From Trichoplax sp. H2 (lineage: Eukaryota): a stretch of 20,000 nucleotides of DNA. The stretch spans positions 242,638 to 262,637 of the forward strand of contig NOWV01000104.1 in assembly GCA_003344405.1 (NCBI GenBank), read 5' to 3'. The position numbers and the translations under genes were made by a program. This document shows positions 3,296 through 20,000 of this stretch, piece by piece. Under the pieces are notes generated by a model, which was not told the DNA's origin, made no database searches, and saw nothing but the letters and a program-made list of their open reading frames with translations. Each line of letters starts with the position of its first letter. Position 1 is the stretch's first letter.

Positions 3296-3435
3296 TCATC
3301 GTTTGCCAATGTTGACGCCATAAATTGCATCTACTGGCGTAAAGATGATTCCTTGTAGCTGGATATTTCTTATCTGACCAGAAAATCCTGATGAAAGTCT
3401 ATTTTCTGTTTTTGCTGAAATATCTGGTGCACCAC
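3296..3435 (-). CDS. Exon 12: LamG C-terminus and stop (GGAPDISAK...AIYGVNIGKR*)
   Basis: Phase-1 acceptor, perlecan-LG3-like motif, TGA at 3298-3296. Confidence 0.88.
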
Positions 3436-6400
3436 CTTAGTATCAAATTTCAAGTAGAATATCACTCTTACATTACGCGAACTTTGTAATAGTAGTATTT
3501 ATCGAGTCGTATCCAAAGCTTTATTCATTGTAAATTATGTAGCTAATTTATTTTCATGTATTATTTTACGTTTGCTTTAAATCGTGCAGGGTTATAACCG
3601 ATATTTTGATCATGATTGCATTTCGATTCCATTTAAAACAAAGATTTTATGGCAAGATATATATACATTATCCTTACTGGGAAAACTCCAGTCTTAATCA
3701 TTGTGACACTGCAGTTTAATTAACTCCTGCTAATGTTACCATTTGAAATGTAATCATGAAATTACCAGATATTAGTACGAAAAGATGTTAGTACCTTGAA
3801 GTGAAAGATTAGTTAGTAACTATCACGAACTAGAAAAACAAGTACATGCTAGATGCTAGACAAATTATTCATCTCTGATAAAAATTTAATTAAATTTTTG
3901 TAGTGCTTTTTACTTAATTTTCAGTCGTGGTTTGAATTAAATAACATTATTTTGTGATTATCGCTGAAATTTTGCTTTACATGTGTAGTGTATTTAGAAT
4001 ATACTGTAACTATATTCTACTCTTAAATATATACATGTTGTATTGCTCTTATATTTAGGCAGATCTACAGTCCGCTTACTCTACATTCATATATAGACTA
4101 CTGTATTTAGTTATTACGGTACTCGCTGTTTTCTACAATCATCTGCTATTTTGTAAACTGTTACGGTATATGTTGTATCTAATTCCACAGTCCTATTCTC
4201 TGCATGTTCTCTATATTTAAAACTATAAATACCGGCGATTTCTACCTCAGAGTTCGTTAGCTTCTCAGTTAGTCTTCTAGTTAGTCTCTCGCAGTCTAAT
4301 ACTTCTACTCATTACTCACGACAGCTTGCACGCTGATCTACCGTAACTACCTCACTGTACTTCACATTACTAACCTACAATAAAGCATTTTTATAAACCC
4401 TTTGGTGTAATAATTGTAAAAGGCGACTAAATCTCAATCCTCAGAGATATTGAACCCTCCATCACAACATGTTATTGGCAATTACTGGTTTCAATAAGAA
4501 TATTATGACTGTTAAACATATAGACTACGAATGCTAACATGTAAGTTTTGTGCATTTCCCGCGATTTTATAGGTACATTTAACTAAATGTAGCAACTGAT
4601 CTACTCCACTATTGTTATCAATATTACTATAAAGCTGCCAGGATATTTATTGTAGGATTATAGCCAACCGTCTGACAAATACTTCTGCATTTAAATTCTA
4701 TTTAGGCTTAATAGTATCAGCATTTGTCGAGTTACATACCTATGTAAGCATAATTGGAATTTACTGCCAGTCTTGATGGGCCAAGATTGGATGATTTGGA
4801 TAACTGAGCTTCGAAGTTATCGACAAACATTTTAATGCTAGAGTAACTCCTGTAAGATAAGAGATATACATCAGAATTGCTTAGATTCGATTTTTAACCA
4901 AGTTTACTCTTCCGAAAAATTCTATAGATATTATAGATAGTATATTATGATATTGTAATTTTTAAAGATCTTAAGATCTTATACCTAGTCACATTGACTT
5001 GATAGTACTTCCCAGTAACGATATTTTGAGATGAAATTAAGTAATTTTCGCGTCCATTAACATGCAATCTATTGATGTTATAGAATATAGTACTTTTAGA
5101 TGAAATCCGAATGCATATGAATAATAAGTAATTAAAAATTTATTAGTATAATTAATGAGGTTGAAATAGACATTGTTCAGTTCTGTATTAACCTAAGCTC
5201 GAGCCTACTTTTTATCAAGGCTATATAGAGATATTTTCCCTCTGATTTCTGGATTGATTAAAAGACAAATTTTTAGATATTAAATTGAGGATATGTGAAA
5301 AAAGTGTCTCAGAATCAGAAATGATCAAAATTAGATAACTGACATTGCTCATTTTACTACACAAACTACTTCTTTATAGTGTCGAAATATCTCAATGGGA
5401 TATTCCTAACCAAAAGCTAAAATATTTACTGTATTAACTATTTAGCACAGATGTACGCTCAGTACAATCTTAAGATTCCACTTAATCTATAATCACGTAT
5501 ATCCAGTGTCAATCTTTTAATTTTATATATCTCTTAACGATTTCTTTCGACCTTTTAATTTATTTGAGAGTAGCACCTCAATAGGATATCAATAATTGGC
5601 TACATAATCTACCGTCGGACGAACAGTGATTACTGTAGTCTCTTTATAAGCCCAAGCATTTACAATAGTGAATTTAGAATTAAATATATTTACAGTGATA
5701 AGTAATAGAATATTAAATGATTATACCCCTCAATCTTACCTGACCAATCCAATATAGGGCACCTTCTAAGTTTAAGGCATTAAATTCGAACTGAATTTGC
5801 TGATATCTGCACAAAAAACAATAATTAATTCTTATGGTGACATGTATTTTCACCTGAAATTCTTAGACTAACAAAAGTTAAATTGTAATAAGATGTCGAT
5901 TAAATCGTTGATATGCTTATATTATTAGTTGCAATGCTAAATAATACAGCGCAAGAATATGAAACTTACTCATTAATAATATTTACTGAATAGAGCAGGT
6001 AACTATACTTTTGGAAATATGGAATATCGTTGTCATTTAGTTGTTTAACTGTCGAGATAAACGTAAAGCGATAGTGATAAATTTCATCATATTCTTAAAT
6101 ATTTCTTGCATATTCTTTATTTATCGGATAACTATTTATTATTCTTACATCGCTAACTTCATGAGGAATTTAAAAGTTAGTCAAGTTAACCTTAAAGCTA
6201 TCTTTAAGTAAAAATGCAAGAATGATGCCTTAACCCTACAGTTAAGTTGTATTTACAGTACTATTTATTACCTTCCCCACAGTCCGATAATCCATAGTAT
6301 GGCATAGGACATAAGCAATAATGTTGTTTACCGTTTGCTATACATCGTCCATTATTCAGACAAGGTGATCGGCTACATGGGTTTATTGTCGCAGAATACA

Positions 6401-9400
6401 TTTTCTCGCAGTAATTTCCATAATATTTATCTCTACAGCGACATGTGAAATAACTTTCGTCTTGTGCAAATTTTTGACATGTACCTCCATTTCTACACAC
6501 CTGATCTCCTTCACAGGCAGCGCCGCATTTGTCCATTTGATGACTTTCGACTGGCTTACTTAAGTCTATCTGTTTGTTATTAAATGATAATTGAGAGATA
6601 CAACCGGAAAATCCATATGGAACTTCAAATAGTGGATTCTGGCTTAAATCGGATAATCCTGCTAAGAATATCCAGCTAGATAGATCTATTGTTGTACTTT
6701 TACCCAAAAAACTACCAAAAGTAAATGCCGGTGTTCCACCGTTAACTACTACCGAACTCCATCCCCGTTCATACTTTGCTACTATGTGGTACCACTTGCC
6801 TTCTTGAATAATAAGTGGATAAACAACCTTACCGGATATTCCAGCAGGGCTACTTTGTGGTCCACTTGAATAGTAAAATGTAATGTGCCGATCTTTAACG
6901 CCTAGTGAAATATAATGCATTGTCGAGGGTGTATTTTCTGCAAATCCGTTGCTTTGAAATATAATCAGACCATCATGAACTTTAGTAGGCTTAATTTTGA
7001 TGTTGATTTCATGATTGTCAGATGGCCTTAATGCTGAACCAATAAATGCTCCATAGGCTGCATTATTAGGATTGCTATTATCAAATCCTGGGAGTATCGA
7101 TGTTACTGCAATTTATATATAAGACACATATCACATATAGCTTTAGTAACGATCTGAAATATCGAAAGTAATATCTGCCTGATTATCTCTTAAGAACATA
7201 AAATCTTCTCTCGTATTTTCCAATGTAACAATGACTGTAAAAAAAATGTTTAATTTAACCTGCTATATCTACTTGCAGCCGTGCCGATACATTCCCATAT
7301 GCATTCGAAACATGACATTCATAAATTCCAGCCATTTCTTGTTTAGGATTTCTAAATTTTAATGAAACACCCGACACCAATGATGGATCAATACTACCTC
7401 CAACTTTAATCCAGGTCACCGATGGAGCTGGTTTCCCGGCACCATTACAGGATACATCTTTTGTCTCACTTTTTAAAAGCCTTAATGCAATTCTGTTTGA
7501 TGGCGATATTTTAGCCGAGGGATAATCTGAAAATTATGGATTTTGCGTTAGAAAAATATTTTACACGTATGTGTGCAACATTTATATTATTTGATAATAG
7601 TGGATTTATAGAGAGAATAAGCTAATTTCACCACATTCTACTAATAGCAGTCAATATTTTAGTAACATTGAATGACTACTGACGTTAGCGTTAATTCAAT
7701 TTTCTCACCATCAACATGGAGCTGAACAGAATCTTGGCCAATCCCATCATTATTAGAAACAGTGCTAGTATAATATTCGCCTGATTTTTGAACATTCCGT
7801 AAAATTAAGAATGGACCGTATGTCTGGTGATGATAAGGTAAACCGGCTCCCATTCTAGTCCATTCACATTCTTTACTCTGTGTGCCATTAATGTTACTAA
7901 ATAAAATAGCTGTACCCCCTCGTAAAACCTTAGCTGACTTTGGCTGAACATCAACATCAACATCTGTTAATAATTATAAATCAAGCTTGTAAATAGAATA
8001 TTTAAAAATTCTAATGTCTTTAAAACTCACCGGTAATACGGTATGATGTATTTTTTAGCAGAGATTATGTTTATGTATTGATTAGAATTAAAAATAGATA
8101 AAGCTATATTATATTGTATTAATGCGATATAGTCTACTACTTACGCTTCGATAGATCAATAACCAAAATTACATTTTTAGAAACACTCCCATCTTGATTT
8201 GAAAGTTGGCAAGTATAAATACCGGAATGGCACTCAGTATTAGCTGGAAATATGAGTCTACCCTGTTGATCTTGGAAAACACCTGATGGAAATTTAGTGT
8301 CGCTTTTAGTAGCCCATTTTGGGATATTTTGGGAAGATTCGGAGAAGCATGCAAATTCTAATCTTTGACCTTTCCTAGCATAAACAATCCCTGATGGCAC
8401 CAGTTTTAATGATGGTACTGCTGCTTAACGAAATTAAAATTTAGAAGTCGAGTTAGGAAATAAATTCTAGAATATTACATGCTATCATCTGCAGTACTAG
8501 GATATTAAGTATTATCATCTATGAATGAATTTATAATACATCTAACCTGAATTTGCTTGATAGAAAGACATCTAGATATAATCAGAATAAATACATTAGC
8601 AGCTAAAGCATCAGTTTTTACTATACATGTAATGGCTTATATCACTAACGTTTCGGATGAGATCATTTATCGTGACACTATAGTTGTGAATTAACTCGTA
8701 ATACAAAGAATAGAAATATGCATTAAATCCATTATTTCTCCTATAAATTAATCTGCTATTCTACCGCGTTAACATTAATGGTAACTAACGAACTATGTTA
8801 TTTAATTTATAAAATAAATGAATCTATATCGCATATAAAATAGACACCAAAAAATGTTTTATCATAATGAATCTGATCAATGTTACTAGTAACTCATTCA
8901 AAATACTTCCAAGTACAATTGGATAAATTCTCAACATTCATGAAGCCAAAATTGTCGCTCAAATTATACCCCTATTAAGTAATATAATCAGCATTATAGT
9001 ATTTACATCTAAGTTAAAGTAAAAATCCATAGCGTACCTTTATCATCGAGCAAAGGTAAATTTAAATCGTTAGAAAATAAAGTGTTAAGAAAACATAATA
9101 AAAAATCAAACATCAGTCAGAAATCATGCTTAAACACAGCACCTTACAGTGTTTAGACAAGTCTATTCCAATTATGTGTGATATATTGTTTTATATTATA
9201 CTATCCCGAAATCTCGCAAAACCTCGTTCGTGATAATGTTTTGTTGTAGTTTAAATTGAGTTTTCACTACAATAATCTCTTTTCAATTTGCTTCTGAATT
9301 GATTTCTATAAAGATGCATTGAAGCAATTATTATGAAGGAGTTGAGCATAGAATTTCTCTTATAAATGTTCCAGTGTCGGCTACTTAAGGTAGTTGCGGT

Positions 9401-11069
9401 AGTAAAGGACTCATAGTAGCTGAAAAGAAGATATTTGCGATTGTTCTAGGAAAATAGTTATCTTGTCTGTACTTTCAGCCTTTCTCTATGTGTTTAGGTC
9501 TCGATTTTGGGCCATACATTAACGAGAACAAGGGTAATAAATATTTTAAATTTTAAATGTATAAACGATCAGAAAGTAGAATTTCACCTTGCTTTAATTT
9601 TCGAGTACCTCAAGTGTATCATTACACTCACTGTATAGTATATAATCTTGGTTAAGTTAAGCTGACAGTTAAAAAATAATTGTATCTTCGTTTTGCTCTA
9701 AGACGCTGCAGGGAACAGGTTCTTAAGTAACTTAATAGCAAGATCCCGATAATAAATAGTAAAATGGTGGCACCAGTTTGTAGGAAACTAATGGTGTTAA
9801 AGATACTACATTTGGGTATTAGGATAGTTCAATACTATTAGTGGATAATTTAGAGGCGATAGCAATAGACTTAAGTGAGAATAGAATATGTTATAAGAAA
9901 GAATATAAAAGGCTGGCTTCATGTGAAGGAAGTTTAGTTTGAGCTCTAGCTGTGCATGGATTACGTTGTCTAACTTTGCTACTGTTATTCCATATTATAA
10001 TAAACGTATTATTTAACAATAAAATTAAGAAATAAAATATTTTCATCTACTAACTTTGGGAAACAATTTATTAAGTTATCATGCCATAGTAAATCGCATT
10101 GCGGTAGATGACTGTAATATACTTATGCATAGTAAGTATAAATCTTATAATATGAAGATTAGAATGTAATTAAGTAGGAGTACGCCCTAACACATAATAT
10201 GTATACACTTCCAAAAATCCAGTTGTCGGCCTTTAATGCCAAACTTAGTAGAAATCATAATTATTTAATATTAATATTATTAATGGGATTACATGAAACT
10301 TATAACCAGGTACATTATTTTACGAAAGAGACATTAATAAAGTAAAATAATGTCAGAAAAATTTATTTAAAAACTTGTTACTTTTGCGAAACCTAAATTA
10401 AGATTATCGGTAACGACAATAAACTTATTTGTGTGCCAGTATTTCTTTATAAAACTGAGGACTCTCATAAAGTTGATTCTAGGCTTAATTTACGACTGTC
10501 CGCCTGAGTTTATATTATCAGAGAAATTATTTTATAACTATGAATCTAGTTGTAGCTCTGATTTGTGACAATCAAGAAAATTATTGTATAAGAAAGTCAT
10601 AACAGGTAAGCATATTTCCAGAAATACCGATAAAAAATATTCATTCTGAGAGTTTTTTTGTTATTTTATAACGAGGTGTTCTGCTAGTGTAATGTATATC
10701 ATGGAAAAATGCTAAGATTCTACGAGCTTATATTAAAATAATTAGCAAAAACTTGCCTGTTATTAATCTAATATACTATAGATAGCAAGTGGATAATTCA
10801 ATAGATTTAATGGGAAGATACCGAATTATTATAGCTGTTGATTTATGAACGTGTTAAGGTGAAAGCAAACTTTGGTACTTAATACTGAAAGCGTTTGCTT
10901 GTACCTTAAAGCCTAATAAGTGCAAGGTGCTTCTGTAAATTCCTTAATAATTGCAATGGACGCAATTAAATATTCTTAAGCAAACAAATGACATTGTTTA
11001 ATAATTGCTACTTACCGCAAGTATGGCAAGATAGGCTACCAATAGGAGAATGCTGAAGGGTTTTCTCAT
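3296..11069 (-). CDS. Multi-exon gene for a secreted perlecan-domain-IV/V-like protein: SP-Ig-Ig-Ig-LamG-EGF-EGF-LamG (~748 aa, 12 coding exons)
   Basis: Exons 11069-11016, 8571-8547, 8420-8145, 7963-7709, 7526-7260, 7105-6272, 6048-5970, 5806-5740, 5248-5193, 5068-4985, 4849-4740 and 3435-3296. All introns are GT..AG with compatible phases. The exons sum to 2247 nt with no internal stop. The C-terminal GGAPDISAKTENRLSSGFSGQIRNI resembles the perlecan LG3 motif GGAPDV...RFSSG.TGCVKN. Confidence 0.85.
4036..4469 (+). mobile_element. Solo-LTR-like element C (434 bp) in the last intron of the intact gene, antisense to it
   Basis: Termini TGTTGT...ACAACA, TATAAATA at 4224-4231, downstream TCAGTT/TTAGTC Inr-like motifs, AATAAA at 4379-4384. 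It lies in a 1.3-kb intron, whereas the equivalent paralogue intron is about 87 bp. Confidence 0.65.
4740..4849 (-). CDS. Exon 11: terminal LamG (SIKMFVDN...RLAVNSNYAYIG)
   Basis: TTACAG acceptor, GTATGT donor, 110 nt, phase 2->1. Confidence 0.85.
4985..5068 (-). CDS. Exon 10: terminal LamG (LHVNGRENYLISSQNIVTGKYYQVNVTR)
   Basis: 84 nt, phase 2-2. Equivalent to the LamG S...I.DG.WH.V...R motif. Confidence 0.85.
5193..5248 (-). CDS. Exon 9: terminal LamG (KSEGKYLYIALIKSRLELR)
   Basis: 56 nt, phase 0->2. Matches paralogue exon 14693-14632 (HYIYVTVNSGRVEL). Confidence 0.8.
5740..5806 (-). CDS. Exon 8: terminal LamG (YQQIQFEFNALNLEGALYWIGQ)
   Basis: IxFxF....GxLxWxG motif, GCAG acceptor, GTAAG donor, 67 nt, phase 2->0. 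Confidence 0.88.
5970..6048 (-). CDS. Exon 7: start of terminal LamG (VKQLNDNDIPYFQKYSYLLY)
   Basis: PxF...SYL LamG start motif, GTAAGT donor, 79 nt, phase 1->2. Confidence 0.85.
6272..7105 (-). CDS. Exon 6: laminin G domain plus two EGF-like repeats
   Basis: Extends ORF 6261..6920 upstream: DGLIIF, YISLG, GKWYHI, GFSGCISQL, then two 6-Cys EGF repeats. 834 nt, phase 1-1. Confidence 0.95.
7260..7526 (-). CDS. Exon 5: Ig domain 3 (I-set)
   Basis: DVSCNGAGKPAPSVTWIK...AGIYECHVSNAYG. Acceptor TTTTCAG, 267 nt, phase 1-1. Not in the ORF track. Confidence 0.92.
7709..7963 (-). CDS. Exon 4: Ig domain 2 (both canonical Cys replaced by Ser)
   Basis: VDVQPKSAKVLRGGTAILFSN...EWTR...LILRNVQKSGEYYTSTVSNNDG...VQLHVD. 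Acceptor AACAG, donor GTGAG, 255 nt, phase 1-1. Confidence 0.88.
8145..8420 (-). CDS. Exon 3: Ig domain 1
   Basis: RLEFAC...PKW...GRLIF...SGIYTCQLSN I-set motifs (ORF 8137..8400). GTAAGT donor at 8144, phase 1-1. Confidence 0.9.
8547..8571 (-). CDS. Exon 2: 25-nt microexon MSFYQANS(A), completes the signal peptide (A-N-S cleavage motif)
   Basis: T-rich acceptor ending ...TATCTAG and donor CAG|GTTAGA. Phase 0->1 exactly bridges exon 1 to the phase-1 Ig exon. Confidence 0.55.
11016..11069 (-). CDS. Exon 1: signal peptide MRKPFSILLLVAYLAILA
   Basis: ATG, basic n-region and hydrophobic h-region, ending at a consensus GTAAGT donor (phase 0). Confidence 0.7.
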
Positions 11070-11937
11070 CTTGGATGATCTGAGAAAGCGTAAAGCAACG
11101 TATACAGTAAGCTAAAAATTACGAGTTATGGGAATTTACCTCCTCTGATGTTCGATTTAAATTGCCGAACACTATCAAGTGTATTATTAAGGGGATAACT
11201 TATACTATGCTAGTAGTGATACAGCCAGGATACAGAAGATCGAAAGAACTATATTGCTTCTTCGCTAAAAATTAAACTACTAATCCTTTTTAGTAGTAAA
11301 CTTTTAAATGAAGTCTAGACTTTAGTCTAACTGCAGCTTATTTAATTCAATTTTTTTGCTAATGATTGGTTCATTTCCAATTTAATCACGTGCTGAATTT
11401 AATCAATCTGATATAATTTTAATAAAATTACAGTAAAGTTGATTAGGTTTAAACTTTACCTTTTCATTAGTCAAAATCTATTACTGAATGAACTGTCTTA
11501 AGTCAAGTTCAAATACCGGTAGTTAGTCATCTATAAAAATAAACTTAAAATCAGGCTGAAAATTGAAGAAATCCCATATTTGCTTAATAAATTAGTATAT
11601 AGTCACGAAACAGAGACTAAGCACATGAGCTATCATAGAGGAATGATAAATATTATAATACCTCAAGCCAAGGTATAAATCAAGAAAGGATTCATTTCTA
11701 CCGTACTGATTGAGTTAGCAAGCGTATCTAGCCGTCAACAGCAATCGAAGTCAACAAAATTCCATTAATTGTAATTACTGACGTAAGCAACATACGTAAC
11801 TTTTATGAAACCCCTGCTATCATTTCTTGTGAGAGTATGCATACTACTAACTAGTAAATTAAAGTTCGGTATATATACATATATATATATAATGCCGAAC
11901 GTATGATACAGATAGTAAATGTTGCATTTTTTATAGA

Positions 11938-11940
<3 letters not shown>

Positions 11941-11968
<28 letters not shown>
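11941..11968. repeat. (CT)10(AT)4 compound microsatellite
   Basis: Direct reading. A further AT-dinucleotide run lies at ~11870-11890. Confidence 0.95.
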
Positions 11969-11969
<1 letters not shown>

Positions 11970-13650
11970 ATATAGCGAAGGACTTCTTGATCAAAAATGA
12001 TCTTCAAAAATTATAAATATATTGGTCGAATTTATTTTTTTATCGAGAAGTGACTGATAGACACGTAACATGTGAATGGTTCTCCCTTTACTATAGCAAT
12101 TGCAGACTTTTGAATATGTTTGCATATTAAATGCTAAGACTGCAAATCTTTCTACCTTATTGTTTAAGTATCTAAATATGAAATTTGGCATTGTGTAAAT
12201 CTAAGTTTTAATTTTCAATTAAAATTATTTCTTAATATGTAACTGAAATGTACTGGATGTAAAGTAATAAGAATTTTCGTCTAGATTAGATTGACAATAA
12301 TTACTAAAAATATTTAGAAAAAATTCCTTACACATTAGGGTCTAATTTTAGTAATTTTAGAGTAGAACCTACGAGAATACATTACAATGCTCTAATTACT
12401 AATATCGCAATAATGATGGTAGGAAGTAAAGAATTATAAATAAATAAATAAGTAAAGTTTATTTTGCCACATTAATAAATAAAACTAGACTGTGGATTAC
12501 TTTGAATGCATTGGACGTACCAAAATCAGTAATACGAAGGTATATGAGATAATTAGTAATTATAATAAATTATTCATTTTAGTATTACTTAAACTATCCG
12601 GATAATTCATTCAAAACAAAATCCAAACTTTTTTTTCGCAGCTCGGTTTCAATAATAAAATTTTAAGAGAAAAATTAACCATAGTAAAATATACATAACT
12701 GACTACATATCACTTAAATTCTTAGATATAATTATTAGCTTATACGATCATTTTTAAATTAAGCAGGTTTTAAGAGACGCTAAAAGATGAGCAATACGCA
12801 ATATTCGACGAATACCTAGTCTTAATGTTGTTAGAATTTATCTTGCTATGAATATGTTAACTGCATTTATAACACTTTCGTTAGCACCAAGTAACTTACA
12901 CTAAGATAAGAGTAAGTTGAAATTCATTATTATATCGCATAGCAATTTAGCAGGGATTTTTAGTGTTGCTTAGTGAATCAATGCTAGAATAATTTACCAT
13001 GAAAATTGGGCTGTATCATTCGACAGACTTACAAGTAAATTTCAGAATTGAATTAGTATAATACTTATACGTCATAAATGCGATTTAATAATGAGCTGGT
13101 AAGATTTCGATCATTTTCTCCATTATTTAATTACTTTCTAGCAAAAAATTTAATTTCCGTAAACAATAAATCGAATGCATAGCTATAGTCAGTCACTTCA
13201 CGTATTCTACATACGAATTCTAGCCAATATATTAAGGTTTCTAAGCAGAGCTAAGAATTCTAAGTGCTATCGATTAATTTTAGGAGACAAATTTTCATAT
13301 CTGATTTGAAGTGTATTTTACATAAGGCAGTCTGTAATATGTATAGAGATCTAAATAATACTATCTATTTAAAATCAGAAAATTTCAACATTTGGCGAAA
13401 AGATTCTATCTGATACTCAGAATAAAGGTAAATGGTAAATTTTATTAAGAAAATATTGTCAATATCATAATAACATTAATTGCATAGCAGTTAATAACAA
13501 CTAATAGATTTAAAATTACAAGCGTATTTGATTAGAAATGTTCTCATACAAGCTTAAATTGAAGTTATAGATTAGTACAATATATTATAATGTAGAGAAT
13601 CAGGTACTAAATGTTATAAAAGTTTAATTGTTTTTAATTTGTAGCCATCA

Positions 13651-15028
13651 TTACAAGCTATAGTTACCAATAACTATGCCACAAAGAGTATCTTGAACTG
13701 CCATCCAGACCCACGCGGGCCCTTAGTATATCCTTGGAAATCTGTAGTAAATCTATCGCCTGTTTTGGAAGCGATATTATCTGTTCCTCCTTACTGAACT
13801 TTCACAATTATCTTATGCTAACCTATTTTCGCTTTATACTTTGAAGTCTGCGAGTATTGAGGTAGATGATTCTAACTCATAGAAATATTATTCGATACTT
13901 GTAGAGAATTGTCACTCTAGGAGATTGATTAGTACCAGTAGCTTGGTGTTACGAAACTGCTTTCTTGATCTGACCTAAATTAGTCTATCTAATCTATTTA
14001 ACCTCTATTAACTTCGGGATTTTCTCAATTAGAAAATTTTCTTATTGCAACACCTGAGAATAGAGTTCAACAATAAGGATTAAAGTTAGTTGAATTTTAT
14101 TTAGTACTAGTTATAATGTGCATTAATACCAGTGTACTCGATGTTAGCATCAGTGGAATTGAAATTAAAAAATTAATAATTAAGCTTATATATAGTTTAA
14201 TCCTAAGTCACATAAACGCTCCGGTACTAGTCTCTCATATTAAATTAAGTAATATTCTATAACGAAGCTCTGTTTTCATTTTTGAAAATTTAGGCAAAAT
14301 AAAATGTCTATATTGAATAATTTAAAAACAGGACTGTAAAAATTTTAGATAGAAGAAATACCCCTAGATTATTGATTTCGTAGATATAAATAGAATTTTA
14401 TGTAGATACCTTGTAACTTTAACAGTATGAGCCCTGCCATCGCTAACAGATTGTGGTGCTGTCAACAACGCCTCCCCGTATCTAAATTAAACCTATTGAT
14501 TATTTGTTAGAATTAATATATATAATATTTTATATTGATTAGAGTCTTGAGTAGAAATCTGACCAATAAGTACAAGTACAGTATTTATAATTTTGGTATT
14601 TAATATCATTGGATTGAATAATATGTCCTACCATAGCTCGACTCGGCCAGAATTGACAGTAACATAAATGTAATGGGTCGTAGAAGTTACCATCTTAAAC
14701 ACAGAAAACACAAATTAAACTTCGTTTCTATATTATTTTATGATATACAATTAATAGTATAACTATAATTACGCATACATTGCCTTGCCAATAAAGTAGT
14801 CCGCTAGACTGATTGGTTGCAAATGTAAACTGTATATCTTGCTGCCTGTATATTATGATCAAGTAATCAACGTAACGCAATTAAATTTGTACAAAAGTTC
14901 TTAATTATTAAGTAGTAATAACGCAATAAAATCTAGTACTATCACTTACTCTTTTAAAGCATTGATATAATAACGTAAGTAACTATTTCCACTGAAAGAT
15001 GCTCCATCAGACGAACTAAACGATAAGG
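13651..15028 (-). pseudogene. Terminal LamG exons (15028-14950, 14845-14779, 14693-14632, 14492-14410, 13974-13877, 13789-13651)
   Basis: ASFSGNSYLRY; IQFTFATNQSSGLLYWQG; HYIYVTVNSGRVEL; FNLDTG/EALL..VSDGRAHTVKVTR; GGTDNIASKTGDRFTTDFQGY. Same intron phases as the intact gene. Confidence 0.88.
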
Positions 15029-15238
15029 CTAATAAAGTAGAGAGTTAGTCAATAAGATTATAAACACACTGATCGTGCAATAAATAAAATAAAGTAGATG
15101 TACTAATATCTATAATAGGCTAGTTAATTACTATACCTGTATCATAAGTAACTATTTTCATTAAAAGATGCTCCATCAGGCAAACTAAACGATAGCACTA
15201 GCAAAGTAGAGGGTTATTTAATGGAATTATAAACATAC
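14976..15238. repeat. Tandem duplication (~94 bp, offset 169 bp) of an acceptor plus the first terminal-LamG exon
   Basis: 14976-15069 and 15145-15238 share TAAGTAACTATTT...AAAGATGCTCCATCAG..AACTAAACGATA...AAAGTAGAG. Confidence 0.9.
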
Positions 15239-15873
15239 GAAGCAAAAATTGTATCATTTCTGCACGGTGCACTGTGATATGGATCTGATGGTGATGTATA
15301 ATTTCTTTCGCAAAGCATTCCAAAATTACTAGATTGGCAGTTACAAATACAATAGTTTCTATCAGCTACCATAAGCAAGCATCGGTATTTTGGAAACTAT
15401 TCTGATCATAAGAATTATCGTAGGCTAATTATTCGCGGTTTCTAAGACGCCACTTACCAAATTATGGGTGGAATTGTCTAATTCACTGTCAAATCTAGAG
15501 ATACATCCTAAAAACGGAATTGAACCTCGAAGATTGAATTTTGATCAAATTGATTGATGATTCCTAGAAACTTCCAATGTAGCAAATCAGTAACTATTCT
15601 GCTTTCTGATTGTCTACTATGCTTTTGCACAAAATTACGTTAGAGTACTTAGCTTCCTTACTTTCTATGGTAAAACACATGAACATTCCAAAGGAGAGTA
15701 TAAAAGCGAACTAAAATTACGGTGTGGGAGAGAGGGAATAAATGATACTATGCAAACCTTGACTACCTAAACAGATCTTACACTAACGATTGACCAAAGT
15801 GCTCAATGGAAACTGTCTGTTTATCATATCAGTAGCTATGCTACGGTCAATCCCGGGAATGACCGGCAATTAG
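15239..15873 (-). pseudogene. Decayed homologue of the large LamG-EGF-EGF exon
   Basis: DLLHWKFLGIINQFDQNSIFEVQFRF/GCISR aligns to DLSSWIFLAGLSDLSQNPLFEVPYGFSGCISQ. DRNYCICNCQSSNFGMLCERNYTSPSDPYHSAPCRN aligns to DESYFTCRCRDKYYGNYCEKMYSATINPCSRSPCLN. Confidence 0.8.
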
Positions 15874-15954
15874 CTACTAAGCTAATACAACCACAGTACT
15901 ATGATAAACGTAAATAAACTAATTTTTATCAACAGTATCTACAGATGAAACTAC

Positions 15955-16444
15955 CTTGTATAATTTATATTCGCAATCACTTAAACAAAGATGACTATCC
16001 TCGATAATTACATAACAGGGAGGAGCATTGACGGCGAAAACTGCCAAGTAAATTAATGCATTGTTCTTGACAATCTCCATTCAAAATAATAAATCTAGTT
16101 AATAACAGATATTTTTCGCTAATGGTTGATTACCTTGTACGTAATTAATTCCAGCGAACTCATTTCTCACTATGCACTTGTAACTACCTAGGGTATTTAC
16201 TTTTTTACCATACTGATAGGGATTCTAGGGGTATTCGTTAATTTCTAATGAATGGAAATTATAACGTACAGCAGCATTAAGGTCATTGCGGTAGTAAATA
16301 TTGATCCAATGTAATGCCACTTGTTAGAAAATTGATGACCGTGGTCACAGTAAACGCCCGTATATCAAGTTCTGCATCAATATTTAGAATCATTATGAGA
16401 TTGAGTGCATGTCCTTTTTACGTAAGGATTGGAATGACAGTTAT
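15955..16444 (-). pseudogene. Degenerate EGF exons (16444-16340, 16244-16134, probable remnant ~16050-15955)
   Basis: DNCHSNPYVKRTC...KY*CRT*YTGVYCDH and EINEYP*NPYQYG..VNTLGSYKC...FAGINYVQ. Both keep phase 1-1 splice sites. Confidence 0.75.
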
Positions 16445-16654
16445 CTGATTTAATATTGAATTGTTGTAAAAATAGATTAATGGTTACTTTCCCATTTTGA
16501 GATTATAAAGCTTTGTTGATTTGAACAATTTATAAGCCAAAGTAATCACAAGTAAAACTTAGCTCTTAAAAAAAAAGTTTGTTTGATCTACGAGATCTTT
16601 CTGAGCAAAGTTTATCTGTGATTGAAATTACGATAAAATAAATTGAAAAATAAC

Positions 16655-17323
16655 TGTATCTTGTCGAATAATAACGCTGATTGCAAACTGGTAGTGGATG
16701 AAGTTGATAGATGAGATAACAGTCATAATTTTTGACAGTGGTGGTTTGATTTCAATGACAAGGATTACGGCCCCATGAAAAGCATACTTTGCCGACGACA
16801 ATATTTTCTTAAACTGATAGCAAGGTAAAGACATCGACGATTTTGAAGTATCTAAAAAGGGTAACAAAAGGAGGAAGCTTCTTCAAACAACAATATTGAT
16901 AGGCCGATGCCTAATAATATTGTATTTAGGCTCTTGTATTGCATAATGCAGAGAAATCTTTCTAAATAACTTGACGCCATTGCTCGTCATTAATTCACAA
17001 TTTTAACTTACAGGATTGCAGTCTTCAAATTAATAAAATATTCGAAGAATATTGTAATAAATTACGACAGTATAAATAAACGTATTTATAGTACTTGTTG
17101 GATAATTTTCCGTCAGTTATTCTGGTGAGACTGTAACGCATCTAATCATGCTTAACCTTCCTCCGAATATCATCTGGCTATTGTAGCTACCATCTAAACG
17201 ATACCAAGAATTATTTAAATATAATCGATCACGAGTAATATCTAAAAATTACTCAACTCAATATATTGATCTTATAGTATCAGTTAGCAAGATACGATTA
17301 TGACATGGATCAGTCCATATTAA
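16655..17323 (-). pseudogene. D8C/D10C (uromodulin/GP2/OIT3-type) domain in two exons (17323-17095, 16813-16655)
   Basis: DPCHN..LTDTIRS...SWYRLDG...RCVTVSPE*LTENYPT / KVCFSWGRNPCH*N...VKNYDCYLIYQLHPLPVCNQRYY. Matches the D8C pattern DPC..RS / WYRF.G / CGT..PGWL...HP / VCF.W / V.NC.G.YVY.L...P.C..RYC, with both Trp codons turned to stops. Confidence 0.8.
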
Positions 17324-17415
17324 CTAAGCAATCCGATAACGATGTTAAAGTGAAGACGTATTACTAGCCTAAGAAATTTATTTTTCAAACTGCAAATTTT
17401 GCATGTTTTTTTAAC

Positions 17416-17955
17416 TTAAACAGGAAGTATTGTCTGCTTTTAAAATTTTACCAGCTACACACCGGCAGTAGTAACTACCAATTGTACTGGTACAATTTCC
17501 TTGACACAGCTGATTCTGGCATTCATCAATATCTATCATTAACGACGCAAATCGATACATAAAGAAGGATGAAAATGGTCGAATTCGATCTATTTCTAAA
17601 TATCAAAAGTTTAATTATAATAGTAAATAAAGCAACCGACTATTTTGGTATTGCTTTCCATTAAAACTGAGATCGCATTGGCATTGGTATTGAAGTCTAA
17701 TAATAATACATTTTCCATGATTGCAAGGGCCAGGTTCGCATGGATGAAAAGCTAGTATGTAAAGTGAAAAAGTTGTAGACGGCTATATGCTGGATAGTGA
17801 TTAGTATCGAGCTGACCACCGTTGAAAGAACACTGTACCTTTTTCTCAGTGTTCTTCGATGTCACCTACAGGATATAAACATGTATAGCCTGATTTTTCT
17901 GAAGTACAATTACCGTAATTAAGGCAAGGATTTAGATTACAACAATCAATAAAGA
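17416..17955 (-). pseudogene. Three EGF exons (~17955-17839, 17751-17641, 17532-17416)
   Basis: CNLNPCLNYGNC...YTCLYP..H*EK (stop at Cys6, no nearby AG acceptor); HPCEPGPCNHGKC...CQC...QY; intact-looking cbEGF DIDECQNQLCQGNCTSTIGSYYCRC...SC. Confidence 0.88.
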
Positions 17956-19077
17956 GTTAAGAAAGGCACAATATTTATGAAATTAGAAGCAGGCGATTCG
18001 ATTTGCCGTTTCCAAGGCTTTAACATCATATCAAATGAACATATTCGGTTTATTTGGCCAAGTAGGAGCAGAATTGAATTTTGAAACTTAGCGGATAGGC
18101 AATTGTTACAGTGTTAAATACTGTATTAGAGTTGAAATATCTATGTTAGGATAATTCTGCTAGACTATCCTTACTTAGTTAACTTCTAATTTGGATATAC
18201 TGTGTTTTAATATAGCACTGACTTTTTATGACAGTGACACTTATACACATACTGAAATTAATAGTTATAATAGGGAATGCAAATCATCTACTTACAGTTC
18301 GAATCATTGTGATTGTAATTTACTTATGCTAGATTGTAAATTATCATGGAAATGTTCCGTGGTAGGACATATCGTAATCTGACTATTCTGTATTAGTCAT
18401 TACATGCCTATGTTCGTAAATACTGTTGTCTGCATTAAGGGAGCAGTAGCTATAATTAATATCTAATTCAGTAAATGATTCCGAGGTTAATTGTATTAAC
18501 TATGACTCATGAACTATTGAGGAACAGTATATAAATGCAGTATATCGTGAAATAAAGAGAATTCTGAAACTTAGTGTTTAACGTAAAATACGAGACGTTC
18601 AAGTCTTTGTGTAGTCTGCTAGTAGAGCAAAAGCGTTTCAGATAGTGCAGATATCGTTCCTTGATACGTGGTTCAAGGAATTGACTTATTGATTGTACAT
18701 TACGTTATCTTGTTGCAAAGCTGTTTTGTGACAGTAATAAAGTTTTTATGTTAAATACTCAAATATACTGATTAGTAATTGAAGAAAGAATGGGAAAAGT
18801 TTGAATAACCTTGTGGATAACTACCGCGCATCTAACCTGAAGAAATCGTTTGGCAATCACAAACTGTTCCACGACAAGTCATTTGCAAGATATAATTATT
18901 AATTATTGGTGATTCCATCGAACAGTACCAAATATTAGTTAGATCTTCATCACATCGTAATCTCGATCCTTGATTGATGCTCTTAAAAGTGATCTACTTG
19001 TCTAATTTAACTAGTGATATTGCCAACATGGGTTTAGTATTTTGAAGGTGTAGCAAATTATAATATATATGTGATAC

Positions 19078-19361
19078 TGTCACACACCACTAGTGACAAA
19101 GTAGTCTACACACGCCAATCCTTGCGGAGAACACCACCTACTAACTTAAAGAGGCGAGATTAGCTATATCACCAAATAATTCAGTTCCAACGACCGAATA
19201 CTTTGGAATAATTATAGCGTCACAGATGATGTAGACGAGATAGTAAGAGATTTACTATCATTTATTACTGAAGGAATCTTGCCACCCAAGATTATAGTCT
19301 TAGAATTAAATATCAATTGATAAACTAGTAGACTATCTAACCGACTAACTAACTAAAAAGG
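19078..19361 (+). repeat. Partial inverted copy of repeat B (matches 845->561)
   Basis: Reverse-complement match over ~285 bp with ~14 differences by my count (~95%). Confidence 0.95.
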
Positions 19362-20000
19362 GATCTTCAGGCACCAACCTTTTATAGTCTCGTCAGAAAC
19401 TCCTGGTGCACATAAAATAAAGCTATCCTTTTAAAGTCATAGGAATTATTATGAATATTGTCATTAAAGACTTCATATAAGATAATTAATTAACAACTTC
19501 TATTGTTAAGAACTGATAATTAATTAATAAATTAATAAAGAGCTTAACTAGTAAACAGTGCATTATCATATTAATCAAAGATTAAACAGATTATATGAAG
19601 AAATGATAATTAATAAAACGTCAATCCACACAAAAAATATTTAATATTACTCAATAATTAGGACGAGCTTACGCATCGTAACAGACACAGGTAGGAATTT
19701 TCCCAGTTTACGGTCCTTTCTGTATCCGATACGTTAGTCCATTAACAAACTAAGATTAGTGAATACGAAATATATTACGCGTATTCAACGAATAAATTAG
19801 TCAATTTGCAAGACTATGCTTGGTACGAAATAAACTATTTAAGCAGTAACAAGAAGAGTCTTGAAACAAGAGGTTTCAAGAATTGATACTAGTAATTTCA
19901 CCTGTCGGTGGGAACGCCGAGATATCTAGTCGTCGAATCGTCTAAAACGAAAATATTGTAAAGCAGCATCGGCCCACCAAGTTTTAAATAACTTAACTAG

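Follow-up and report, generated by a model that had tools for sequence, protein, structure and literature searches.

A transcribed Ig-LamG gene and a probable non-processed pseudogene of the same family side by side in Trichoplax sp. H2

Pikachurin (EGFLAM), a small secreted protein, has fibronectin type III domains before its LamG region and three LamG domains. In placozoans, to our knowledge, an old puzzle is that matrix proteins are encoded, yet no basal lamina is visible. Regarding perlecan, the true Trichoplax protein is described in published work (PMC4398486) as encoded by two large genes with ~36 Ig modules and all five domains. The window analyzed here, i.e., the whole stretch of 20,000 nucleotides from Trichoplax sp. 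H2 to which all coordinates refer, contains two homologous genes, called gene 1 and gene 2. It very probably holds one working gene (gene 1) and one dead neighbour (gene 2, a pseudogene), and the locus is a case of ordinary duplicate-and-decay. An earlier note on this DNA had proposed instead two functional tandem genes with a constant endorepellin-like tail and different heads (three Ig domains versus EGF and D8C modules) exchanged by shuffling of phase 1-1 exons, a scenario that we now hold to be very unlikely.

Gene 1 is a real, intact and expressed gene for a small secreted perlecan-like matrix protein. The sequence, together with RNA evidence in the form of assembled contigs from three runs (X19, X20 and X15), delineates 12 exons on the minus strand, from 11293 to 3296. 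Their frame of 2247 nt (748 codons) has a single terminal stop, the TGA at 3298-3296 directly after LamG2, and encodes, in this order, a signal peptide, three Ig domains and a LamG-EGF-EGF-LamG cassette:

11016..11293, minus strand: exon 1, with 5' untranslated sequence and, as read from the letters, an ATG (11069-11067) that opens a hydrophobic stretch of 18 codons resembling a signal peptide; the donor GTAAGT follows 11016, and in both X19 and X15 RNA contigs reaching 11293 connect 11016 with 8571.
8547..8571, minus strand: exon 2, a 25-nt mini-exon with phase 0 at its start and phase 1 at its end; X19 and X15 both contain the joints 8571/11016 and 8420/8547.
8145..8420, minus strand: Ig exon 1, phase 1-1 (Pfam Ig_2, E 2.5e-06; RNA joints).
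7709..7963, minus strand: Ig exon 2, phase 1-1 (Pfam I-set, E 4.2e-04, under the curated cut-off; own Ig profile; joints in all three RNA runs).
7260..7526, minus strand: Ig exon 3, phase 1-1 (Pfam Ig_3, E 6.8e-10; joints in all three RNA runs).
6272..7105, minus strand: large exon of 834 nt with LamG1 and two EGF modules (Pfam Laminin_G_1, E 4.7e-12; EGF, E 3.1e-07; RNA joints).
3296..6048, minus strand: LamG2, in six exons (6048-5970, 5806-5740, 5248-5193, 5068-4985, 4849-4740 and 3435-3296) whose five introns are RNA-bridged.

RNA contigs bridge all 11 introns of gene 1, eight of them in the three RNA runs and the remaining three in two runs, and RNA contig depth over its exon bins is 33-106; contigs of the DNA run X2 bridge none of the 11. 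The splice borders are AG/GT for the large exon and for the tail exons of 79, 67, 56, 84, 110 and 140 nt. The exon sizes (79, 67, 56, 84 and 110 nt for the small exons) and phases previously read from the letters are exact, with RNA-bridged introns, and the three phase 1-1 Ig exons placed before the large exon are recognized by Pfam and linked by RNA joints. The last intron of gene 1 harbors a high-copy repeat (~3984-4466).

The gene 1 large exon shares 99% identity with the Trichoplax adhaerens model TRIADDRAFT_57624 (P0001, 673 aa), in which Pfam recognizes a second Laminin_G stretch. The N-terminus of this model falls on the 25-nt mini-exon (8547-8571), and the model contains neither the exon for the signal peptide nor the last LamG exon, and only part of the first Ig exon. 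The main practical gain of the present analysis is a corrected gene model for TRIADDRAFT_57624: with the missing exons restored, a complete secreted Ig-LamG protein is obtained, which is clearly transcribed and bears on the puzzle of placozoan matrix proteins without a basal lamina. A literature search returned no mention of TRIADDRAFT_57624 and, at the level of listings, nothing specific on placozoan laminin G, extracellular matrix or pseudogenes. The gene 1 product would be a 748-residue secreted protein, comparable to a miniature of perlecan domains IV-V. By analogy with the LamG pairs of perlecan, agrin, laminin and pikachurin, it may act as an extracellular matrix or cell-surface adhesion protein, its own LamG pair binding a glycosylated receptor or matrix partner of the dystroglycan or heparan-sulfate type and its Ig domains serving as a spacer or as a second binding arm; this putative function is drawn from domain families only.

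Gene 2 spans 17956-13667, also on the minus strand. Its second half consists of the following features:

15250..15687, minus strand: large-exon remnant comprising the C-terminal end of LamG1, followed by EGF1 and one half of EGF2 (family profile, E 7e-18; match to P0010).
15140..15238, minus strand: decayed tandem copy of an intron 3' end and the first LamG2 exon, 81% identical to 14971-15069 and containing a TGA.
14410..15028, minus strand: LamG2 exons 15028-14950 (79 nt), 14845-14779 (67 nt), 14693-14632 (62 nt) and 14492-14410 (83 nt), with canonical AG/GT borders.
13667..14333, minus strand: remnant of the fifth LamG2 exon, which begins at 14333, is interrupted by in-frame stops and lacks a donor, and remnant of the last exon (13789-13667).

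Four weak matches of the gene 1 tail are colinear and on the same strand in gene 2, the 79-, 67-, 62- and 83-nt exons sit at the splice positions of gene 1 and, as stated in the earlier note, one acceptor (...ATCAATAG) is common to both genes. The homology is beyond chance, as shown by these colinear matches and by the match to P0010 (E 6.6e-17, see below), and the tail splice positions and the family profile bear out the proposal that the cassettes of gene 1 and gene 2 are paralogous and divided alike into exons and introns. The large LamG+EGF+EGF exon, formerly taken as intact in gene 2, proved to be a fragment covering only positions 96-242 of the ~267 of the family profile (1-95 and 243-267 are absent), with three in-frame TAA (15660-15640) and two frameshifts, of -1 near 15520 and of +1 near 15400. 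Its EGF1 is without the first three Cys, and its EGF2 has a Tyr at the first Cys and ends after profile position 242. The small exons of 79, 67, 62 and 83 nt were correctly called, but the open 98-nt exon expected after them was not found: 13795-14412 offers 17 open AG..GT candidates, but not one has a length of 98 nt or a resemblance to the 110-nt exon of gene 1. The last exon is frameshifted, with a frame change and a 7-base gap relative to gene 1. The first three LamG2 exons have an open frame; in the fourth, the run 14474-14477 contains one G too few. As this 83-nt exon is one base shorter than the 84-nt exon of gene 1, the frame is shifted and the phases differ from there on, which contradicts the identical intron phases claimed throughout both genes.

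With its stops, frameshifts, two internal deletions and a local duplication of 169 bases, gene 2 cannot give rise to any LamG-EGF-EGF-LamG protein. It combines homology and disabling lesions with retained parental introns and, since these introns were kept, the pseudogene would be of the non-processed type. Decay is incomplete: an open frame persists in three tail exons (208 nt) and in one calcium-binding EGF exon. Among 12 bins covering 11738-17905, RNA depth exceeds zero in one bin for X19, two for X20 and three for X15, with all values at most 2.5; absent RNA contig cover over gene 2 was not counted as evidence for a pseudogene. Searches with the family, Ig and tail profiles found no third family copy in the window.

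Upstream of the large-exon remnant, gene 2 contains the following stretches:

17849..17956, minus strand: EGF-like stretch a (Pfam EGF, E 4e-4), with a Tyr at the fifth Cys position and a TGA at the sixth.
17618..17782, minus strand: EGF-like stretch b (Pfam EGF, E 7.8e-05), with a Tyr at the sixth Cys position and a weak sole donor.
17416..17532, minus strand: calcium-binding EGF exon of 117 nt, phase 1-1, with six Cys (Pfam EGF_CA, E 3.2e-06, over 17414-17602).
17006..17248, minus strand: remnant formerly called D8C, with two in-frame TAA and 2 Cys in an 81-codon read-through.
16340..16442, minus strand: EGF-like stretch in which two TGA interrupt the frame and Cys positions are changed to Tyr; it was spotted by eye and in a tblastx comparison with the EGF of gene 1, and Pfam does not recognize it.

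EGF-like stretch a is directly preceded by a TAA, with no AG acceptor in the 45 upstream bases (18000-17956). A very-high-depth repeat begins at ~18104, directly upstream of gene 2 (bin 17906-18400; loose end at 18104). The phase 1-1 EGF head attributed to gene 2 is hence partly recovered: Pfam recognizes three EGF-like stretches, but two of the three are damaged and 17532-17416 is the only intact-looking head exon of phase 1-1. The D8C domain is defined by eight conserved cysteines, and 17006-17248, the D8C module of the earlier note, may resemble the D8C of uromodulin. For this stretch, no family of the Pfam copy used, which may contain no D8C model, was found at E<=1, the collection of longer proteins gave 0 of 12 candidates, the PDB sequences gave no match, and the Atlas gave no usable match with the plain 43-residue frame; the module is thus left without support. 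Visual inspection also suggested an Ig-like remnant in 16133-16323, where a phase-1 donor accompanies a Trp and a Gly-x-Tyr-x-Cys motif, but this candidate was dropped: its 74-codon read-through matches no Pfam family at E<=1, and the profile of the three gene 1 Ig exons is silent there, its best matches lying elsewhere (E 1 and 3.5). More generally, neither Pfam nor this profile detects an Ig domain upstream of gene 2.

Two working genes with swapped heads would account for the homologous tail exons at the same splice positions, for upstream sequences that differ (Ig in gene 1, EGF-like without detectable Ig in gene 2) and for the one intact calcium-binding EGF exon of phase 1-1. However, gene 2 is unable to encode the cassette in this genome, its head EGF stretches are mostly damaged, D8C is found by no search, and nothing ties head and tail into one transcript, the EGF-like and LamG remnants having neither a joining RNA contig nor an intact orthologue that joins both. 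Of the local family with swappable heads, what stands is a family with a shared tail, which forms a clade in the tree described below; the two working genes do not, gene 2 being dead. Alternatively, two different dead genes, or one gene that the repeat at ~18104 interrupted, could be the source of the EGF-like (17956-16340) and LamG (15687-13667) remnants, a reading to which we grant a real but minor chance. Between 16340 and 15687, 650 bases are without recognisable homology and LamG1 profile positions 1-95 are gone, so that the junction attesting continuity is lost, and the very-high-depth repeat with its loose end lies directly upstream. Yet the two sets of remnants are alike in strand, order and degree of decay, and the sequence separating them shows no recognisable sign of a second promoter or terminal exon.

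Could the lesions be assembly errors, gene 2 being intact in the animal? In the DNA run X2, whose organism label is different, one additional base in the G run 14474-14477 (31.2 of 48.1 depth) restores the 84-nt frame of the fourth LamG2 exon of gene 2, and the 83-nt frameshift is thus polymorphic, strain-specific or an assembly slip. As a general explanation, assembly error is nonetheless highly improbable. In the same assembly stretch, the 2247 nt of gene 1 are flawless and agree with the RNA contigs; most gene 2 lesions are not homopolymer slips but substitutions (to TAA, to TGA or from Cys to Tyr) and the loss of segments of 75-285 nt; and the X2 contigs over 15541-17305 show just 17 letter differences and 5 gap letters, with the two gaps outside the EGF-like remnants. 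The other gene 2 lesions would be common to X2, a claim based solely on how little X2 differs overall (17 of 1760 letters, 10 of 588 and 10 of 1547). X2 also contains joints skipping 12546-14003 (depth 12.4, versus 14.1 for the contiguous contig) and 14200-15060 (depth 20.1), which, with one contig each and a 30-letter side, may be deletion alleles removing gene 2 exons.

Regarding the origin of this pair, gene 1 with P0007, and P0009 with the pair formed by the gene 2 remnant and P0010, group in one clade (5 of 62 rows, SH-aLRT 99; inner pairs, support 94) in a tree obtained by a quick search with no bootstrap. Phmmer scores for the family are 311, 193 and 186 versus 83 for the next protein; one clade and a clear score separation from other LamG-EGF-EGF units thus mark a lineage-restricted family. 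P0007, P0009 and P0010 come from assembled contigs of presumed placozoan origin. P0010 matches gene 2 at 15630-15238 (E 6.6e-17). Over 93 alignment columns, P0010 and the gene 2 remnant share 56% identity, versus 23% between the remnant and gene 1 over a 128-residue tblastn alignment, which makes the remnant the relic of an older family member and not a recent duplicate. As gene 1 is closer to P0007 and gene 2 to P0010, they belong to separate orthology groups; the earlier note had set separate ancient groups against a local family, and the separation is found, but both groups are placed by these sequences inside one lineage-restricted clade and would not be separate ancient metazoan groups. 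Among longer proteins, the P0010 search retrieved no annotated Trichoplax protein, its only match being P0014 from a metagenome (28% identity), and a scan of metagenome contigs with P0010 gave 69 pattern matches, none of which was confirmed.

Gene 2 would hence represent a second, older paralogue group whose intact form is P0010, presumably from another placozoan. The family would have duplicated before the split from the organism(s) carrying P0007 and P0010, and the copy adjoining gene 1 would have died in the Trichoplax line. Gene 2 shows that more members of the family once existed in the Trichoplax lineage. Placozoans might even have a family of their own, with three or more small secreted proteins built on an endorepellin-like LamG-EGF-EGF-LamG tail, in which the P0010-type member, dead in Trichoplax, bore an EGF/calcium-binding-EGF head and not Ig domains, a speculation that we consider rather unlikely. 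If true, a phase-1 exon swap within this family would have exchanged heads on a constant tail before the loss of one copy. Gene 2 also cautions against inferring domain architectures from decayed exons.

How does this locus compare with known systems? As in perlecan, gene 1 has Ig repeats followed by LamG-EGF-EGF-LamG; after family members, the next-best matches of its large exon include proteins named perlecan-like at NCBI, and the LG3 structure 3sh4 is among the solved matches. Gene 1 differs from perlecan by having only three Ig and two LamG domains and its own signal peptide and first exon. It is without the LDL-receptor class A module, the laminin B/laminin-EGF region and the long Ig array of a perlecan/HSPG2 orthologue (Pfam finds in P0001 only Ig, Laminin_G and EGF families and no LDL-receptor, laminin B or SEA module) and, with two LamG and one EGF pair, it is not a perlecan domain V, in which three LamG are split by EGF pairs. 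By Pfam and by its best named matches, which are perlecan-like, it nevertheless contains a LamG-EGF-EGF unit of the perlecan-domain-V type; the likeness to perlecan domain V put forward earlier is thus upheld by the next-best named matches, i.e., perlecan-like proteins and Nematostella pikachurin. Pikachurin resembles the gene 1 product in its small size, its secretion and its LamG and EGF modules (28% identity for P0029, the Nematostella pikachurin; LG structure 8d1b among the matches), but P0029 lies outside the gene 1/gene 2 clade and Pfam detects no fibronectin type III domain (fn3) in P0001, which sets gene 1 apart from the pikachurins. Finally, unlike a duplicated pseudogene beside its functional paralogue, gene 2 is not a recent duplicate of its neighbour gene 1; like duplicated non-processed pseudogenes, it has kept introns at the parental positions, with scattered stops, frameshifts, deletions and a local duplication, and structural variants in the DNA contigs of another strain.

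The window is AT-rich animal DNA (GC 0.26-0.35), and its large open frame (7103-6273, minus strand), translated into 277 residues, shares 99% identity with TRIADDRAFT_57624, a 673-aa protein of Trichoplax adhaerens (P0001); the locus is therefore placozoan. Most likely, it tells an ordinary story, that of an old duplicate (gene 2) decayed beside a working gene (gene 1). The earlier note, in which two tandem paralogues shared a tail and carried swappable heads, is partly confirmed. Gene 1 was modelled from sequence and then compared with contigs assembled from three RNA runs and one DNA run, yielding 12 exons on the minus strand:

11293 (tentative)-11016, minus strand: exon 1, ATG at 11069, hydrophobic start of 18 codons
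8571-8547, minus strand: exon 2, a 25-nt mini-exon
8420-8145, minus strand: first Ig exon, phase 1-1
7963-7709, minus strand: second Ig exon, phase 1-1
7526-7260, minus strand: third Ig exon, phase 1-1
7105-6272, minus strand: large exon of 834 nt, LamG + EGF + EGF
stop at 3298-3296, minus strand: final six exons of 79, 67, 56, 84, 110 and 140 nt, jointly encoding the second LamG and the stop

The spliced frame comprises 2247 nt (748 codons) with a sole, terminal stop. Pfam assigns Ig families to all three Ig exons, with the match to the second one falling under the curated cut-off; it also recognises Laminin_G and EGF in the large exon, and two Laminin_G stretches in P0001. All 11 introns are spanned by RNA contigs: the two 5' introns and the final one in two of the three RNA runs, the other eight in all three. 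The DNA run (X2) bridges no intron. The description of gene 1 in the earlier note thus proved exact. As for the public model TRIADDRAFT_57624, it is incomplete: it conflicts with the RNA contigs by beginning at the mini-exon, omitting nine codons of the first Ig exon, whose acceptor lies at 8420, and lacking the last exon (3296-3435), and the contigs also add an upstream signal-peptide exon (coding part 11016-11069). A literature search for this locus tag found no paper. Each of the three RNA runs has unspliced contigs of depth 3-11 over much of the 2.4-kb intron 8572-11015 (intron 2), and a single contig of RNA run X20 connects 8399 to 11280 on opposite strands; this signal may represent pre-mRNA, an antisense transcript or an assembly chimera.

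The tail of gene 2 is homologous to that of gene 1. The gene 1 tail finds four weak but colinear matches on the same strand, and four exons have AG/GT borders at the gene 1 positions:

15028-14950, minus strand: tail exon of 79 nt
14845-14779, minus strand: tail exon of 67 nt
14693-14632, minus strand: tail exon of 62 nt
14492-14410, minus strand: tail exon of 83 nt

The acceptor octamer said to be common to both genes is found in each. A profile built from gene 1 and three relatives known from unnamed assembled contigs (P0007, P0009 and P0010) matches 15687-15250 at E 7e-18, and P0010 by itself matches 15630-15238 at E 6.6e-17. The tail exons had been described as matching throughout; this holds for the splice positions of the 79, 67, 62 and 83 nt exons, but the 83-nt exon, missing one G from a G run, is frameshifted relative to the 84 nt of gene 1, and the 98-nt exon was not found. 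The stretch 13795-14412 offers 17 open AG..GT candidates; not one of them has 98 nt or resembles the 110-nt exon of gene 1, whose counterpart, from 14333, has in-frame stops and lacks a donor. The last exon shows a frame change and a 7-base gap with respect to gene 1.

The large LamG+EGF+EGF exon previously attributed to gene 2 is a remnant. Read against the family profile and P0010, it is missing positions 1-95 and 243-267 of a profile of about 267, contains three in-frame TAA at 15660-15640, and loses its frame near 15520 to regain it near 15400. EGF1 is without its first three Cys, EGF2 has its first Cys replaced by Tyr, and the remnant stops midway through EGF2. Immediately after it, 15140-15238 is an 81%-identical, TGA-containing copy of 14971-15069 (intron end and 79-nt exon).

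Upstream, Pfam recognises three EGF-like stretches. In the first, the last two Cys positions are Tyr and TGA, TAA lies immediately upstream, and no AG acceptor occurs in the preceding 45 bases (18000-17956); in the second, the last Cys is Tyr; among the three, only the third (17532-17416) is an intact phase 1-1 exon. An additional EGF-like stretch (16442-16340), not recognised by Pfam, has two TGA. The stretch taken for D8C (17248-17006) contains two TAA and two Cys, and found no match in Pfam (E<=1), the protein collection, PDB sequences or the Atlas. The reading of different heads is consequently not sustained: the EGF-type copy is a dead gene, D8C is unconfirmed, and nothing joins the head remnants to the tail remnants.

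Evidence on whether these lesions are genuine comes from the same assembly and from X2, whose organism label differs. Gene 1, a few kilobases off, has no flaw and is consistent with RNA, and the majority of gene 2 lesions are substitutions or absent segments rather than homopolymer slips. Over 15541-17305, X2 contigs differ at 17 letters and carry two deletions, of 4 bases and 1 base, neither of which touches the EGF-like remnants; they show 10 differing letters in each of 12517-14063 and 14503-15089. Speaking against genuine lesions, one more base is present in X2 at the G run (14473/14474), in 31.2 of 48.1 depth; because this restores the 84-nt frame, the frameshift of the 83-nt exon is either unfixed or an assembly slip. 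Single X2 contigs also jump 12546-14003 and 14200-15060, with 25 and 5 other letters between, the former at depth 12.4 vs 14.1 for the contiguous contig, like two alleles; these skips are only candidate deletion alleles, which would remove gene 2 exons.

Several repeats accompany the locus. Within the last intron of gene 1, a high-copy repeat of ~480 bases (3984-4466; X2 depth 1900-3500 vs ~29 elsewhere), bordered by loose ends at 3982-3984 and 4466-4467 in all four runs, is probably a short mobile element. A very high-copy repeat extends from 18104 to 18400 and beyond, immediately upstream of the first EGF-like remnant (loose end at 18104; X2 depth 36566 in bin 17906-18400), and may have cut the dead gene in its 5' part. 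A direct repeat (1-245 / 895-1139; 245 bases, 97%, spacing 894 bases) and an inverted pair flanking the whole locus (558-845 / 19078-19364; ~290 bases, 97% and 89% complementary, 18.2 kb apart) are probably dispersed-repeat copies. A simple repeat, passed over in the placement of the contigs, lies at 11864-11978, and 20 consecutive N at 246-265.

Regarding the family, the best matches of the large exon among 1.84 billion representatives are P0007 (60% identity), P0009 (39%) and P0010 (38%), rescored by phmmer at 311, 193 and 186 bits, with the next protein at 83; the next named matches are bilaterian perlecan-like proteins and Nematostella pikachurin. A quick IQ-TREE search (support by SH-aLRT only) was run on 62 LamG-EGF-EGF units with a domain score >=40 and >=190 profile positions, excluding the near-duplicates P0001, P0160 and P0157-P0159. 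Gene 1 groups with P0007 (support 94), and P0009 with a pair formed by P0010 and the gene 2 remnant (94 for the pair); this remnant occupies only 39% of the alignment columns (56% identity to P0010 over 93 columns). The five form one clade (99), outside which the tree resolves no close neighbour. By this placement, the two cassettes therefore fall into separate paralogue groups within a single lineage-restricted family, and the shared-tail family is real. The duplication is older than the split from the carrier of P0007 and P0010, presumably another placozoan. Searching P0010 among longer proteins returned no annotated Trichoplax protein, which is weak evidence for loss of that member in Trichoplax. 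A head swap survives solely as a possible historical event.

According to Warren et al. (2015, PMC4398486), Trichoplax perlecan consists of two large adjacent genes with five of five perlecan domains and ~36 Ig modules. Gene 1, in contrast, starts from a first exon of its own and contains three Ig and two LamG domains, and is therefore not the perlecan gene so described; it is a small relative whose layout resembles domains IV-V. By sequence, the structures solved for laminin alpha-1 LG4-5, pikachurin LG, neurexin and perlecan LG3 come closest. According to Adams and Brancaccio (2015, PMC4582122), dystroglycan is present in T. adhaerens, and alpha-dystroglycan is bound by laminin, agrin, perlecan and neurexin through their LG domains. 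On this basis, the LamG pair of the gene 1 product might bind a glycosylated receptor or matrix partner of the dystroglycan or heparan-sulfate type.
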